The position numbers and the translations under genes are program-made. A stretch of 64,000 nucleotides of DNA from Escherichia phage HMD-9. This document shows positions 14,900 through 63,350 of this stretch, piece after piece. The stretch lies in the sequence record PV287714.1; one strand, given 5' to 3'. Each line of letters begins with the position of its first letter. Position 1 is the first letter of the stretch. The notes beneath the pieces are model-generated. The model searched no databases. It was not told where the DNA came from and saw only the letters and a program-made list of their open reading frames with translations.

Positions 14900-15415
14900 T
14901 TAATACCCATTATCTTGACGTTCAAAATTATGTTTATTTTTCAAATAATAAAGTTTAAAGATTTCTTCCGCATTCATTCCAAGACCAGCAAACATATTTA
15001 ATACGAAATGAAATATATCAACAAGCTCAAATTTAATTTCGAGCTGATCTTCTGGGGACATTTCATCAATGCGTTTTTCTTGCGCTTCAATATAACGCGC
15101 TTTCCATTTTTTCCAAACTGCCGATGCGTCTTTTTCACCACGTGACATTTCACCAAGAGAAGTCAGAAGTTCACGGAATTCATCATCAATACAGTCTTTT
15201 TGTTCACGCATCCAAGAAACAACATCACCGGCAGTTTCTAATTTATCTGGATGATAGCAGTATTCGCGATCATTTGCTAAACGAACCTGCAGAGATTTCT
15301 GCATATCAAGCATAACCTGCAGCGGGTCTTTTTCATCACCGAGAATATTCCAGTATTCATTTTGAGCTTTATCAGCGCCTTCGATCAGTTGACTACATTC
15401 GTTAAAGTATGCCAT
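14900..15415 (-). CDS. 56: dCTP pyrophosphatase gp56 (MazG-like)
   Basis: Track ORF trimmed to internal ATG (MAYFNECSQL...) giving 171 aa as in T4; GAAAGGAA SD. Confidence 0.9.
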   Translation of the reverse strand: MAYFNECSQLIEGADKAQNEYWNILGDEKDPLQVMLDMQKSLQVRLANDREYCYHPDKLETAGDVVSWMREQKDCIDDEFRELLTSLGEMSRGEKDASAVWKKWKARYIEAQEKRIDEMSPEDQLEIKFELVDIFHFVLNMFAGLGMNAEEIFKLYYLKNKHNFERQDNGY

Positions 15416-15449
15416 TATTTTTCCTTTCAATTCATGGGTTAGTAGATTA

Positions 15450-15476
15450 ATTATACAATAAATATATAAAGCAATA
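15450..15476 (-). promoter_or_regulatory. MotA-dependent middle promoter for gene 56
   Basis: Minus strand TTGCTTTA MotA box, 11 bp, TATAAT. Confidence 0.55.
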
Positions 15477-15486
15477 AGGAGGACAT

Positions 15487-15687
15487 ATGGTACAAAAATT
15501 AATGGCACTTGTTAATGCCATCAAAGGTAATAAAAAACGTATAGCTTTTACTATTTCTGCTATGATAGGAATTTTACTCTGGAATTTTGTTTTATCGCCA
15601 ATTGCTATTGCTCATGGCGTTAATATTCCAGTAATTACTCTTGATACATTCGTAGATTTAGCATTTGCTTTAGTTGGGTTAATTTAA
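15487..15687 (+). CDS. plus-strand small membrane protein (two predicted TM helices), 66 aa
   Basis: Only intergenic plus-strand ORF; AAGGAGG SD 4 nt before ATG; exactly fills gap between 56 and 61. Confidence 0.4.
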   Translation: MVQKLMALVNAIKGNKKRIAFTISAMIGILLWNFVLSPIAIAHGVNIPVITLDTFVDLAFALVGLI

Positions 15688-16712
15688 ATCTTAGCATATT
15701 TAGATAACCGCATTTTAGCCATCAACCCCTGAGCAATATTATTTCTCATATATTCCATAATTTGTTCAGGGGTTGCACCTTCCTTTCTAATCATATCATT
15801 AACATCTTTTGATTTCCAGGGAGATTTATCCCAAAACATAACCCTTTCTCCTGCATCAACTAATTTAGTCATTCGTTTAATAGTGTCAGGGTGACGAGGT
15901 TCATTATCTAAGACCCACACTCGTCTATCTTTAAATGGAACAACTTCTAGGTCTAATTGACCACCCGTAATAGCTATACCATTTTCAATAAAAAGTGAAT
16001 CTATAGGTCCTTCTAGAACATATACATCACCATCTTTAACTCGTTCAACGCCATATATTTTTGTTGCCTCAGGATAAGCTTTGATGGTGATATATTTTTG
16101 AGGAGCATCTTTCTTTAATGCACGTCCTTGAAAAGACTCAGCTTTTCCATTAGCATTATAAATTGGAATAACAAGACGAGGCTCAGGTATTTCCTTTTTG
16201 TATGTTCCTGGTGCTATGCTATTAACTAATTTAGGCCATTCGGTTGTAAACCAAAGATATTTCCATTTGTCCTTTGGAATACAACGAGCTTTTACGTATT
16301 TTATAATTGGATGGTCTTCCGTCAGTTTATCTAATCTAATGCATGACGGAAGAGATTTAATTATTTTCTTCTCAGGTTGTTTAGGAAATTCTTTAGGTTT
16401 TTCTACTGGACGACTTTTACCTTTTTCTTTTCTTATTTCAAAGATATACTCACGATATAAATCAGGTTCAAACTCCTTTAAATATATTCCGATTGGTGCA
16501 TGATAGTTGCAGTTATAACAATGAATATTTCCTTCATTATTATCGCCATAATACCATCCACGGGCTTTATTTTGGTCGGTTTTTGAATCTCCACAAACAG
16601 GGCATCTAAACCGCAATTTAAAAGTTGAACTATTATTTACTTGTGTGAATTTAGGTAAATGAGCTAATGCACGGTATGCAAACTCATTATCAATCCAAGG
16701 TATTGATGACAT
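15684..16712 (-). CDS. 61: DNA primase gp61
   Basis: 342-aa track ORF; zinc ribbon Cys37/Cys40 (RCPVCGDS) and HCYNC; matches T4 gp61. Confidence 0.95.
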   Translation of the reverse strand: MSSIPWIDNEFAYRALAHLPKFTQVNNSSTFKLRFRCPVCGDSKTDQNKARGWYYGDNNEGNIHCYNCNYHAPIGIYLKEFEPDLYREYIFEIRKEKGKSRPVEKPKEFPKQPEKKIIKSLPSCIRLDKLTEDHPIIKYVKARCIPKDKWKYLWFTTEWPKLVNSIAPGTYKKEIPEPRLVIPIYNANGKAESFQGRALKKDAPQKYITIKAYPEATKIYGVERVKDGDVYVLEGPIDSLFIENGIAITGGQLDLEVVPFKDRRVWVLDNEPRHPDTIKRMTKLVDAGERVMFWDKSPWKSKDVNDMIRKEGATPEQIMEYMRNNIAQGLMAKMRLSKYAKI

Positions 16713-16714
16713 TT

Positions 16715-16879
16715 TTACTCTTCTTTTTCTTTAGATTCCTCTTTTTTCTTTTTAGGAATCTGTTCAGGACCTTTATTTACTACAGCGCCTGACGTTGTTC
16801 CAGTAGAGATATTTTCAGGATTACCGCCTGAATCTCCAGCGACCATATCTTCTTTAATAAATTCTTTATATGTTTTCAT
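16715..16879 (-). CDS. small protein with capsid-targeting-sequence-like N-terminus, 54 aa
   Basis: ORF below track cutoff: MKTYKEFIKEDMVAG...; GAGG SD; stop 2 nt before gene 61 ATG. Confidence 0.45.
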   Translation of the reverse strand: MKTYKEFIKEDMVAGDSGGNPENISTGTTSGAVVNKGPEQIPKKKKEESKEKEE

Positions 16880-16880
16880 A

Positions 16881-17492
16881 TTAACCTCTATTCATAAAAG
16901 CATTAAAAATTTGGTCATCAATAGACTGTTTTTCTGATGGTAATTCATATCCACATATTACAATTTTGTGATCAATATCAAAATACACAGAAGCAATATG
17001 ATTAATGATGTTTTCAGTAAAGTCTAAATCAACATCAATATCTTTTTGACCACAGCCCAAAGGATAAATAATGCGAGTAATTCGATTATCTTTAACAAAG
17101 ATTCCACCGACATACTCTGTGTTGCGTTTAAAGTCTACACGGCGACGTAATGAAAAATATTCAGGCTCTTTATGAGCTCGGCTCATAGGACACAACGAGT
17201 AACTAGAATAAGAGATGTCAAATCCTACGCCTTCAATATGAGCCAAAGTATCATGATTAAACCAATTATAATCGTACGCCAAATCCATTAGATTATAATA
17301 TGTAAAAGGCACCGGATTAACATCATTAGTCACAAGCATGTAATTAGCAACTGCTATAATTTCATTGTTTTTGACGAATACAAACCGCGATTGATGTGAA
17401 TGACCTGGACCCGCGTTTTCACGATTAATGATATAACACTGGGCACCTTTATATTTGTATGTATCTTTGCACTTGTGCATTTGGTAGAGCAT
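16881..17492 (-). CDS. hypothetical protein (61.1/61.2 region)
   Basis: 203-aa track ORF between spackle and primase. Confidence 0.6.
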   Translation of the reverse strand: MLYQMHKCKDTYKYKGAQCYIINRENAGPGHSHQSRFVFVKNNEIIAVANYMLVTNDVNPVPFTYYNLMDLAYDYNWFNHDTLAHIEGVGFDISYSSYSLCPMSRAHKEPEYFSLRRRVDFKRNTEYVGGIFVKDNRITRIIYPLGCGQKDIDVDLDFTENIINHIASVYFDIDHKIVICGYELPSEKQSIDDQIFNAFMNRG

Positions 17493-39254: not shown

Positions 39255-39578
39255 TTAGTCTTCTATGATATCTCTATCATATCCAAGTGAAATGAGAGTT
39301 TCTTTGAAGTGTTTAATGTTCTTTTGTCTAGAATCATTGATGAAAATGACTGGATAACGAATGTTAAGAGATGTGAATCCAGCGCGTTTAGCAAGAGATA
39401 CAATCAGCGGACGATCATACTCAATCTTACCATTATTTGTAAGAACTTTATAGAAAGTAAAAGGAGCATTGAGCTCCTTTAGAAGTTTTGTAACTGATTG
39501 ACATCCAGGACAACGACCTACTTCATCTGGAATTCCATAGACTTCAATCTTATTCTTTAAGTTCGAGTTTTGTTCCAC
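39255..39578 (-). CDS. nrdH: glutaredoxin-like protein NrdH
   Basis: CPGC redox motif (KIEVYGIPDEVGRCPGCQ); start uncertain, probably GTG at 39576-39578. Confidence 0.55.
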   Translation of the reverse strand: MEQNSNLKNKIEVYGIPDEVGRCPGCQSVTKLLKELNAPFTFYKVLTNNGKIEYDRPLIVSLAKRAGFTSLNIRYPVIFINDSRQKNIKHFKETLISLGYDRDIIED

Positions 39579-39861
39579 GAGAAATAATTCCTTGATAAGC
39601 CCAGTATGGCGGGTTAACAGAATCATCGCCAGAATTTTCTTCAGGAAAATAAACCTGGATAACAAATCCAGATGCATCAAAGGTAAAATAAACCGTAGGT
39701 AATTCACCTAACAATTCAGCACGGTTATTAATTTCTTCGAGTTCTCGTTCTCGTCCAGCCCAAAAACTAGGATTTAGATTACATTCATAGAAATAATAGT
39801 CATTACCGAACATATCAAAACCCTTCCAACTCTCTACCACATACCGCTCAAAACTAATCAT
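39550..39861 (-). CDS. hypothetical protein
   Basis: 103-aa track ORF. Confidence 0.5.
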   Translation of the reverse strand: MISFERYVVESWKGFDMFGNDYYFYECNLNPSFWAGRERELEEINNRAELLGELPTVYFTFDASGFVIQVYFPEENSGDDSVNPPYWAYQGIISRGTKLELKE

Positions 39862-61948: not shown

Positions 61949-62545
61949 TTAATTACCACGGGCTGCATTAGCAACGGCATAAGCGTACTGAACATTAGCG
62001 TCTTTAAACATACCTTTAGAGGTGTCTATTTCTGCCTTAAAGCCGCCTTTAGCCATAACATCGGCAAATTCTTTACGGAAAGCCATTGCATCAAGACCTT
62101 TCCATGATGATTTGTGCTTGGCGAATTCAAGACCAGCGTAGTTGACAGCCTTAGCTAATTTATTATCAATAACCCATTTACCAGCTTTAGGCACAAACAC
62201 AGGACCTTTCTGTTTAGAGAACAGTTTTAAATTCCAGCGACGAAGGTCAAAGTCAGCTTTAACAAAAGCTGCGTCCAAGTTACTAGCAACAACATCTTCA
62301 ATATGAGCAAATTTAAGTCCGTCAACTTCAATATTTAGGTCGGTACGCCAGCGAAGTCCTTTCCAGGCGAAAGCTTTAAAGTCGGAAGCCTTTGTAGCTA
62401 AATACCGTTCAATAGGAGCTGTTTTAGCGTCAAAACCATTTCCTGGGTTGTCAACGCCGTTTCCTCGGTAAGTCCACTCATCTTTATTAATGCCTTGGAC
62501 CTTTCCTACAGAAGCTTCGGCGATAAATTCTTTATATGTTTTCAT
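61949..62545 (-). CDS. internal protein (IPIII-like) with capsid targeting sequence
   Basis: 198-aa track ORF; N-terminal MKTYKEFIAE CTS; basic, Lys/Ala-rich body. Confidence 0.7.
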   Translation of the reverse strand: MKTYKEFIAEASVGKVQGINKDEWTYRGNGVDNPGNGFDAKTAPIERYLATKASDFKAFAWKGLRWRTDLNIEVDGLKFAHIEDVVASNLDAAFVKADFDLRRWNLKLFSKQKGPVFVPKAGKWVIDNKLAKAVNYAGLEFAKHKSSWKGLDAMAFRKEFADVMAKGGFKAEIDTSKGMFKDANVQYAYAVANAARGN

Positions 62546-62598
62546 ACGGATTCCTTAAAGGTAAATATTTTAATTGGTATGTTCAAGTAACTGTAGAT

Positions 62599-62627
62599 AT
62601 ACTATCACAATTCTAGGAGATGTAAAC
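62599..62627 (-). promoter_or_regulatory. T4-type early promoter for IPIII-like gene
   Basis: Reverse complement GTTTACatctcctagaattgtgaTAGTAT. Confidence 0.5.
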
Positions 62628-63026
62628 TTATTTGTAGGTTTTCATCCAATTCTTGAACAAAGCCACGACGTCTTTCTCTTTAACGTTCAGTTTAACGTCC
62701 AACATTTTACCACCAGCTGCTCTCGTTTGGCGAATCTTAGCAGTACCGGTTTCGCCATTCCACTCAACATAATATTGTCCAGCGTTCATTGCAATACCAT
62801 CGCCGTAGTCTTCATTTTTAGAAGTGGTGAAGGCCAGCTTCATAGTCTTAGAGACACGAGCCTGCATGCCTGTCTGAAGGGCATTACGAACGCGAATAAC
62901 CTGAGGAGTGGCCTGGGTCAGGTTCTCATTCAGTTCTTCAGTGAACTCTTCAGATTCAAACATAGCCAAAAGTTCTTTAGATGCAGGAATTACATTCTCT
63001 GCGATAAATTCTTGATACGTTTTCAT
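62628..63026 (-). CDS. internal-protein-like protein with capsid targeting sequence
   Basis: 132-aa track ORF; N-terminal MKTYQEFIAE CTS. Confidence 0.6.
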   Translation of the reverse strand: MKTYQEFIAENVIPASKELLAMFESEEFTEELNENLTQATPQVIRVRNALQTGMQARVSKTMKLAFTTSKNEDYGDGIAMNAGQYYVEWNGETGTAKIRQTRAAGGKMLDVKLNVKEKDVVALFKNWMKTYK

Positions 63027-63056
63027 TTTTGTTTCCTTGTTTGTTTTGATAGAGTA

Positions 63057-63086
63057 ATTATACCATAATAATACTTAAGCGTAAAC
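63057..63086 (-). promoter_or_regulatory. T4-type early promoter
   Basis: Reverse complement GTTTACgcttaagtattattatggTATAAT. Confidence 0.55.
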
Positions 63087-63089
63087 TGT

Positions 63090-63350
63090 TTAAGCTTTAC
63101 CGCCAGAAATAATTCCGAAGTTGTTAAAATCATATCCAATATCGTCAACATCTACTTTAGGGCTTGCTACAACATAAGCAATTTCACTACGTTTTGCATA
63201 GGTGTTTATTTCTCTACCATCGCCGCCTAGGAAAGAATACCCATTACGTTTTAATGAGCCAAAGTCTTCCGCATCACCAATGAAAGCTTTAACTTTAAAT
63301 TTAGGACCTTTGGCATCTGCTTCAGCGATAAATTCTTGATACATTTTCAT
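63090..63350 (-). CDS. internal-protein-like protein with capsid targeting sequence
   Basis: 86-aa track ORF; N-terminal MKMYQEFIAE CTS. Confidence 0.6.
   Translation of the reverse strand: MKMYQEFIAEADAKGPKFKVKAFIGDAEDFGSLKRNGYSFLGGDGREINTYAKRSEIAYVVASPKVDVDDIGYDFNNFGIISGGKA

Follow-up and report, generated by a model that had tools for sequence, protein, structure and literature searches.

Among the head proteins of phage T4, the internal proteins (IPs) carry a capsid targeting sequence (CTS), canonically MKTYQEFIAE, in which residues 4 and 7 mainly govern targeting and residues 8 and 10 govern processing, with an Asp at position 10 blocking processing (PMC9026906, a review of Black's work). 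The prohead protease gp21 cuts the capsid protein gp23 between Glu65 and Ala66, and it removes from gp24 a 10-residue leader with an aliphatic-x-Glu end, MAKINELLRE/S, where here and below a slash marks the cut or the corresponding junction (PMC7136217). Residues 66-91 of gp23 form the "N-fist", which after expansion is ordered on the outside of the head, contacts four subunits, and helps to form the Soc site (PMC9958956, PMC9546572, PMC7136217). Before expansion, residues 66-105 lack order and point into the prohead interior, where they are likely to touch the scaffold, and the head-length mutations A66D, A94V, and G97S fall within this stretch (PMC9546572). Here, we examine gene 61.1 of Escherichia phage HMD-9 in a 64,000-nt stretch of record PV287714.1 (the window), one of very few small open reading frames (ORFs) that are conserved across the whole T4-like group without an assigned function. 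Its product joins an IP-type leader to a segment homologous to the gp23 cleavage site and N-fist, and may be a small packaged head component.

The window comes from a Tequatrovirus (T4-like) genome; a query of 2.8 kb spanning 61.1 matched 540 phage records and was 98.7% identical to Escherichia phage 236Ecol005PP. Gene 61.1 lies at 16715..16879 on the minus strand (ATG at 16879-16877, stop at 16717-16715), and its 54 codons plus TAA encode MKTYKEFIKEDMVAGDSGGNPENISTGTTSGAVVNKGPEQIPKKKKEESKEKEE. The original prediction, which named no strand, placed the ORF at exactly these coordinates, and the GAGG Shine-Dalgarno sequence that it described is present at 16885..16888 (minus), 5 nt 5' of the ATG and within the final codons of 61.2/adfA. 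Its description of the ORF as unlisted was mistaken, since the gene is annotated as 61.1 in T4, RB32, VR7, CC31, Acj61, and other records, and Nolan et al. (2006) had already placed it among five conserved, function-less ORFs of the T4 group (PMC1524935). Beyond such gene lists, literature searches turned up no functional, mutant, or proteomic data on 61.1 and nothing useful on deletions in the interval between genes 41 and 61, and Pfam and NCBIfam scans of its short and long forms returned nothing usable.

Conservation of the gene is broad. All 54 residues match PHROG 1823 (unknown function; the short form) with E=7e-34, and the match to PHROG 2086, which holds the long form, has E=2.6e-16. 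T-even orthologues are 96-100% identical to the window protein, and a tblastn search matched 1,493 phage records, the weakest of which possibly represent gp23 rather than a 61.1 orthologue, from phages of Escherichia, Klebsiella, Shigella, Aeromonas, Acinetobacter, Enterobacter, Vibrio, and other hosts. Compared with orthologues of three other genera, the window gene has a ratio of nonsynonymous to synonymous substitution (dN/dS) of about 0.05-0.10; in the same comparison, synonymous sites are saturated (proportion of differences, pS, 0.61-0.78), with a nonsynonymous proportion (pN) of 0.07-0.12. Gene 61.1 is thus a real gene under strong purifying selection, and the in-frame conservation among T4-like genomes that had been proposed as a check is present across many genera.

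The leader, MKTYKEFIKE (codons 1-10; 16850..16879, minus), has the form of an IP-type CTS, with a predicted gp21 cut after Glu10. It is identical to the canonical CTS at eight of 10 residues (positions 1-4, 6-8, and 10); the earlier statement that its first eight residues match was loosely worded. The two substitutions are at positions 5 and 9, and Lys at position 5 also occurs in the IPIII-like gene of the window, whose leader shares nine of 10 residues and 23 of the first 24 nt with that of 61.1. That gene belongs to an internal-protein locus of three ORFs (198, 132, and 86 aa; 61949..63350, minus) with the leaders MKTYKEFIAE, MKTYQEFIAE, and MKMYQEFIAE, which served as the comparator within this genome. 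When all 2,717 ATG starts on both strands of the window were scored against CTS residues 2-10, the background reached no more than four of nine matches, and only 61.1 (seven) and the three internal-protein genes (eight, eight, and nine) rose above it; the number of starts expected by chance to reach at least seven matches is 4.4e-5 per window. All four mapped determinants (Tyr4, Phe7, Ile8, and Glu10) are retained in 61.1, which places it by sequence in the CTS class, with the targeting residues at 4 and 7 and aliphatic-x-Glu at 8-10 (Ile8-Lys9-Glu10). A weak PHROG match of residues 1-25 is to "internal virion protein". We found no promoter/Shine-Dalgarno cassette shared between 61.1 and the IP genes, and the upstream DNA is unrelated.

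The likeness to IPI, IPII, and IPIII is one of the leader, the common decapeptide M-K-T-Y-x-E-F-I-x-E with its determinants at 4, 7, 8, and 10. The IP payload is folded and basic, whereas that of 61.1 is a disordered, gp23-like peptide of 44 residues with a predicted mature charge of -2; unlike the IP genes, 61.1 has no late promoter, lies in the gene 41-61 cluster instead of the IP locus, and is unreported in virions. The CTS pattern itself (aromatic at 4, Phe at 7, aliphatic at 8, Glu at 10) is also that of the conserved pre-cleavage segment of gp23 (F59, F62, L63, and E65). Because 61.1 joins both in one polypeptide, we suggest that the two share an origin, the CTS having perhaps evolved from the pre-cleavage segment of the capsid protein.

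Of the three tandem ORFs of the internal-protein locus, that of 198 aa is IPIII-like (phrog_5341), and that of 86 aa encodes an internal head protein (phrog_2667). The remaining ORF, of 132 aa, falls in a PHROG of unknown function (phrog_15461) and, since it has a perfect MKTYQEFIAE leader, is a probable uncharacterized packaged protein. A relaxed CTS-like pattern, M-x-x-aromatic-x-x-aromatic-aliphatic-x-E, also opens a conserved 103-aa ORF at 39553-39861 (minus; MISFERYVVE, phrog_2749) and, likewise, UvsW.1 of Krischvirus G37-3 (MISFKRFLVE; L012:13859-14095).

The residues that follow the leader were compared with gp23 because some database records name the 61.1 protein "major capsid protein". 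The core, DMVAGDSGGNPENISTGTTSGAVVNKGP (codons 11-38; 16766..16849, minus), corresponds to gp23 66-93, the N-terminus of the mature capsid protein and its N-fist, and is followed by a Lys-rich tail, EQIPKKKKEESKEKEE (codons 39-54; 16718..16765, minus), whose coding sequence contains an indel-prone A-run. In a gapless BLASTP alignment, 61.1 residues 2-38 match gp23 57-93 at 16 of 37 positions (E=1e-8), and the Glu10/Asp11 junction superposes exactly on Glu65/Ala66. The 61.1 family hidden Markov model (HMM) matched gp23 in all six genera searched (E 6e-12 to 2e-9 at Z=100,000); all other ORFs of the window went unmatched. Searched against 177,635 distinct PDB sequences, a 27-sequence family profile found only T4 gp23 (E=3.8e-13, residues 61-101) and mature gp23 (residues 2-36), the next match having E=0.16. 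A profile of long-form 61.1 aligned by hhalign with one of gp23 N-termini from six genera scored 97.8% probability (E=1.3e-12), with the match limited to gp23 columns 54-103. It took profiles to reach gp23: a single-sequence phmmer search of 1.84 billion representatives found none at E<1e-3. At the level of sequence, these comparisons firmly support the homology of 61.1 to gp23 57-101, as a paralogue of the cleavage site next to the leader and of the N-fist. The 29-residue core is identical to gp23 at 13-18 positions (about 45-60%; six genera) whether the gp23 is that of its own phage or a foreign one; the lack of such a preference indicates an ancient duplication, and we discarded recent gene conversion or tight co-evolution with the phage's own gp23 as explanations.

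What 61.1 shares with gp23 is thus the homologous stretch with its superposed junction and, by prediction, disorder when unassembled, which for gp23 is described (PMC9546572): on their own, the 61.1 core and tail are disordered in the AlphaFold prediction, as expected for such a segment. Unlike gp23, it lacks the first 55 residues of the delta-piece and the remaining ~420 residues with the HK97 fold, and after the Gly-Pro it continues into the Lys-rich tail instead of the N-arm/Gol region. With no HK97-fold body (A and P domains and E-loop, ~450 residues) in a 54-aa protein, and no Pfam or NCBIfam match, 61.1 stands outside the gp23 capsid-protein family. The orthologues of 54-160 aa that are labeled "major capsid protein" or "major capsid domain-containing protein" (NC_027349.1, MN580668.1, and the UniRef names for P0002, P0065, and P0105) therefore need correction; the labels are misleading, a 40-residue local similarity having been turned into a whole-protein name. 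The similarity was evidently spotted as a local pattern by automated pipelines, judging from these names, and we found no paper in the literature that interprets it, ties it to the cleavage site or N-fist, or notes the CTS. The leader of gp24 resembles that of 61.1 in its length of 10 residues, its aliphatic-x-Glu end, and its removal by gp21 (predicted for 61.1), but homology between the two proteins was not detected by BLASTP or by the family HMM.

Two other readings of the core were tried and rejected. The GDSGG motif is not a serine-protease signature: many members have Ala or His in place of its Ser, gp23 itself has GDHGY, and the protein is too small. Overlap with the Gol peptide, which activates Lit, was the other: the Gol region of gp23 presumably lies downstream of the 61.1-homologous segment, in which similarity weakens beyond Gly-Pro93 and has gone by about residue 101.

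Taken with the leader, this homology makes it hardly credible that the ORF is non-functional or that its leader is an accidental match, the option which the original prediction had set beside a packaged peptide. Small size and the lack of proteomic detection are all that speak for an accident, against in-frame conservation across many genera, the tblastn matches in 1,493 records (the weakest possibly to gp23), the low dN/dS, the retention of every defined CTS determinant at a negligible chance expectation, and the gp23 homology in the PDB search.

The architecture of the family, built from seven genera and from 31 representatives (50-251 aa, all of the same plan) recovered by exhaustive phmmer search of 1.84 billion proteins, comprises a variable leader of four to ~110 aa, a Glu, the N-fist-like core, and a Lys-rich tail. 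The core consensus is [DEAS][MV]VAGD[SA]GG...I[AS]xGxT[ST]GA[VI]xNxGP, and its 29 residues are 55-76% identical among T4-type, Krischvirus, Slopekvirus, and Acinetobacter phages. Some of the phmmer members stand nearer to gp23 at the junction and core (...LKE/AEVSGDSGG, ...ILE/AEVIGDSGY, GDHGG). In every member examined a Glu directly precedes the core, mostly as aliphatic-x-Glu, with variants such as IKE/D, LFE/D, MLE/D, LYE/S, VEE/A, LKE/D, and VDE/D, and it is kept even after a two-residue insertion (e.g., KEFVKLNE/D). Short forms of 50-63 aa occur in Tequatrovirus, Gaprivervirus, Dhakavirus, a Jiaodavirus-like Klebsiella phage, Krischvirus, and IME13, and long forms of ~154-162 aa in Karamvirus CC31, Mosigvirus SF, Slopekvirus KP27, Acinetobacter phage Acj61, and a KVP40-like Vibrio phage, so that both are found within Tevenvirinae. 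This alternation of long, propeptide-like helical leaders with short, CTS-like leaders in one subfamily is consistent with interchangeable targeting modules; the swap of the long N-domain for a 10-residue leader, with the Glu junction and core kept, would fit an exchangeable targeting propeptide followed by a C-terminal product.

The ~108-aa N-domain of the long form is predicted to be helical; the AlphaFold model of the long form has a predicted local distance difference test (pLDDT) score of 64.6 overall, with helices at 80-87 for residues 10-70. We rejected the idea that it is a diverged gp23 delta-domain or a core protein, as hhalign homology covers only gp23 columns 54-103 and no match to gp67, gp68, or gp22 was found. 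Foldseek returned only uncharacterized phage proteins from BFVD and nothing from the PDB, Pfam gave nothing, and no counterpart of the domain is encoded within the 64-kb window. The long form (~155 aa) resembles the N-terminal propeptides on head proteins of giant phages of the SPN3US and phiKZ type, which exceed 100 residues and are cut after Glu (PMC5694885), in its layout of helical N-domain, aliphatic-x-Glu, and core, but it has no sequence or fold similarity to any characterized propeptide or core protein.

Two further features of the family concern its C-terminal end. In the metagenomic members P0128, P0143, and P0146, an extra ~100-aa domain extends beyond the Lys-rich tail and starts with a CTS-like M-x-E-V-x-x-F-K-x-F-V-E, which suggests a fusion with, or read-through into, a downstream gene with a leader of its own. 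The A-rich tail of 61.1 (16718-16765, minus; P0002) shows homopolymer-indel polymorphism in which both frames stay Lys-rich; deleting one A from the AAAAAAG run of the window yields the exact 62-aa T6-type tail, KKKKRNLKKKKSKNVINTLD, which reads across the gene 61 start.

From these comparisons we propose, tentatively and with somewhat less than even confidence, that 61.1 is a prohead-directed mini-protein that is packaged and cleaved by gp21. Packaging and gp21 cleavage are favored because the leader keeps all mapped determinants, because the cut site superposes on that of gp23, and because the N-terminal part has been exchanged in evolution with the junction and core intact; the homology to the gp23 cleavage site and N-fist gives the earlier suggestion of a small packaged peptide independent support, with entry into the head and cleavage both inferred from sequence. 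The protein would be made from an early polycistronic mRNA with adfA and the primase, and would join the scaffolding core through its leader and possibly also through the gp23-like segment, whose counterpart in gp23 is turned toward the core until expansion. gp21 would then cut after Glu10, as it cuts gp23 after Glu65, and release the 44-residue peptide, which might remain in the head, escape, or dock at the N-fist site of gp23, or alternatively bind scaffold or DNA through its tail. A simple DNA-neutralizing role is not general, since the net charge of the mature peptide is -2 in T4-type phages and -1 to +6 in other lineages. In its leader 61.1 would thus work most like a T4 internal protein, and in its cleavage junction like gp23. 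The gene itself is known; its combination of a CTS with a cleavage-site/N-fist payload makes the product a probable CTS-bearing, gp21-processed head component with an unusual payload.

We hold confidence at this level because literature searches found no proteomic or genetic support and expression is early only, and several observations weigh against packaging. Time-resolved omics of T4 place the 61.1 mRNA in the early class and do not quantify its protein, whereas IP genes combine early RNA with late protein (PMC9697503 supplement); a protein made early might still last until heads assemble. No T4 late promoter (TATAAATA) occurs on the coding strand between genes 41 and 61, and the surroundings of 61.1 are replication and anti-toxin genes, not a head-gene cluster. 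In T4-type proteins the residue after the predicted cut is Asp, whereas the known IP, gp23, and gp24 sites have Ala or Ser. The leaders of P0117 and P0139 have only 4-6 residues and lack the CTS determinants. In Krischvirus G37-3, of which ~95 kb were scanned, the CTS pattern matched only 61.1 and UvsW.1; no internal-protein group sharing its 61.1 leader was present there, and when N-terminal decapeptides in the same ~95 kb were compared de novo, the only group to share one was an unrelated set of paralogues. Finally, a mass-spectrometry paper on T4 heads that re-examined gp21 sites and covers nine processed head proteins does not mention 61.1, and none of the virion proteomes in the searchable literature lists it, which is weak negative evidence. 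Diagnostic peptides would be the tryptic EDMVAGDSGGNPENISTGTTSGAVVNK for the uncut protein and the semi-tryptic DMVAGDSGGNPENISTGTTSGAVVNK for cleavage after Glu10.

The same gp23 segment also bears on the idea that 61.1 is a trans-acting assembly regulator rather than cargo, one that competes with the gp23 N-terminal segment at gp22, gp21, or gp23 and so adjusts nucleation, head length, or when cleavage and expansion take place. We regard this as quite improbable. The homologous stretch of gp23 is thought to contact the scaffold and carries the head-length mutations (PMC9546572), the N-fist touches four subunits and helps form the Soc site (PMC9958956), and the conserved cleavage-site motif could act as a competing substrate; the early region also contains other head genes, with gene 40 adjoining gene 41 and soc adjoining gene 56. 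A low-abundance early product would nevertheless have difficulty competing with ~900 gp23 copies per head, and we found no report of a head-morphology phenotype that maps to 61.1. The idea also overlaps heavily with the packaged-peptide reading, from which it is inseparable by sequence.

If 61.1 is indeed packaged, the inventory of the T4 head has a gap, and the N-fist has a partner that acts in trans. A more specific proposal, which we consider doubtful, is that throughout the T4-like phages a separate version of the cleavage site and N-fist has been retained as a trans-acting capsid module that, once cut by gp21, docks where the gp23 N-fist is missing or disordered, for instance by the portal or at the vertices, or that tethers DNA or scaffold through its tail; its counterpart outside the head would be an early mimic of the capsid N-terminus.

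Such a mimic is favored by the neighborhood and by the existence of capsid-sensing systems. Read along the minus strand, the genes are 41, dmd, 61.4, sp, 61.2, 61.1, 61, 56, with a sigma-70-like promoter preceding dmd. Gene 61.2 (adfA; 16881..17492, minus), whose stop is 1 nt before the 61.1 ATG, lies with sp, tifA (61.4), and dmd upstream in a region called the "anti-TA island" (TA, toxin-antitoxin); dmd, tifA, and adfA inhibit host toxins (PMC9391042). 61.1 shares the location and early expression of the dmd-tifA-sp-adfA cluster, being, like dmd, tifA, and adfA, a small early gene of the polycistronic cluster between 41 and 61, and TifA, like 61.1 with its Lys-rich tail, has a cluster of positive residues (PMC9391042). 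On this evidence, 61.1 could be a cytoplasmic mimic of the nascent gp23 N-terminus, made early and never packaged, that acts as a decoy for a factor recognizing this segment, whether a host capsid-sensing defense, a chaperone, or a protease. Other genes of the island have been called attractive anti-toxin candidates (PMC9391042), strong gp23 homology is limited to an exposed, disordered segment, and the E. coli CmdTAC system is triggered when its chaperone binds newly made Gp23 (PMC11618068).

We nevertheless judge the decoy unlikely. The CmdTAC titration model predicts that a gp23 mimic would trigger the toxin instead of blocking it, and a decoy has no reason to keep a CTS-type leader with its targeting determinants; nor does the core track the gp23 of its own phage. 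The family HMM, run against all window ORFs, revealed no similarity in sequence to Dmd, TifA, or AdfA. Nor is the distribution patchy and host-linked, as it typically is for accessory counter-defense genes: unlike host-specific ones, the family occurs in T4-like phages of Escherichia, Klebsiella, Acinetobacter, Aeromonas, Vibrio, and other hosts, and 61.1 is conserved far beyond the coliphages to an extent that appears to set it apart from dmd, tifA, and adfA. In the distant genomes inspected, it was the only gene of the 41-61 interval annotated as a T4 orthologue, the other ORFs being hypothetical and varying in number. Should 61.1 prove to be unpackaged, an early capsid-N-terminus mimic beside three anti-toxin genes would be a strong counter-defense candidate and, if the decoy is real, the first case of a phage making an early mimic of the N-terminus of its own capsid protein.

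On its other side, 61.1 is followed by gene 61 (15684..16712, minus), which encodes the 342-aa DNA primase and whose ATG, at 16712, begins 2 nt after the 61.1 stop, as originally noted. In all 11 genomes inspected for its position (RB32, CC31, KP27, G37-3, Acj61, IME13, XZ1, VR7, CLB_P2, SF, and K65), 61.1 precedes gene 61 on the same strand, and it is directly adjacent in nine; two small ORFs intervene in KP27 and G37-3. Together with the Tequatrovirus junction, at which the last tail codons form a purine-rich stretch immediately 5' of the primase ATG, and with a Lys-rich tail that could bind nucleic acid, this constant position could point to a small primase- or replication-linked protein, or to a coupling leader for gene 61, whose likeness to gp23 and the CTS is a relic. 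We find this improbable as well. The claim that the ORF is coupled to primase holds for Tequatrovirus and not beyond it: the 2-nt junction is confined to that genus, whereas elsewhere there are spacers of 32-316 nt, with a hairpin in several genera, or the two intervening ORFs, and the four other Tevenvirinae-type relatives whose junction was examined have a 32-39-nt spacer or intervening ORFs. Selection, moreover, acts on the amino acids of the gp23-like core and the preceding Glu and not on the 3' end, and a coupling leader needs no core of 29 residues that is so well conserved across distant genera.

The spacers between 61.1 and gene 61 in VR7, CLB_P2, SF, and K65 are 32-39 nt long, with predicted folding energies of -11 to -13 kcal/mol (L016:669-700, L017:663-700, L018:666-704, and L019:669-707). 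At least in CLB_P2, SF, and K65 the spacer is a clear stem-loop of the GGCCTTATTA.TTTAAGGCC type, preceded in CLB_P2 by TGATATAATGG and in SF and K65 by near variants. It resembles the promoter-stem-loop (PeSL) cassettes of T4-like phages; the window, with 2 nt between 61.1 and gene 61, lacks it.

Two smaller observations concern the genes downstream of 61. Between genes 56 and 61, a 66-aa hydrophobic ORF on the plus strand (15487-15687) shares 4 nt with the 3' end of gene 61; conserved (phrog_2024, E=8e-31) and listed as ORF030w in RB32, it looks like a small membrane protein of no assigned function. Gene 56 itself (dCTPase; 14900-15508, minus) appears in the ORF list as 202 aa from a GTG start, and its 172-aa RB32 orthologue fits an internal ATG (MAYFNECS...).

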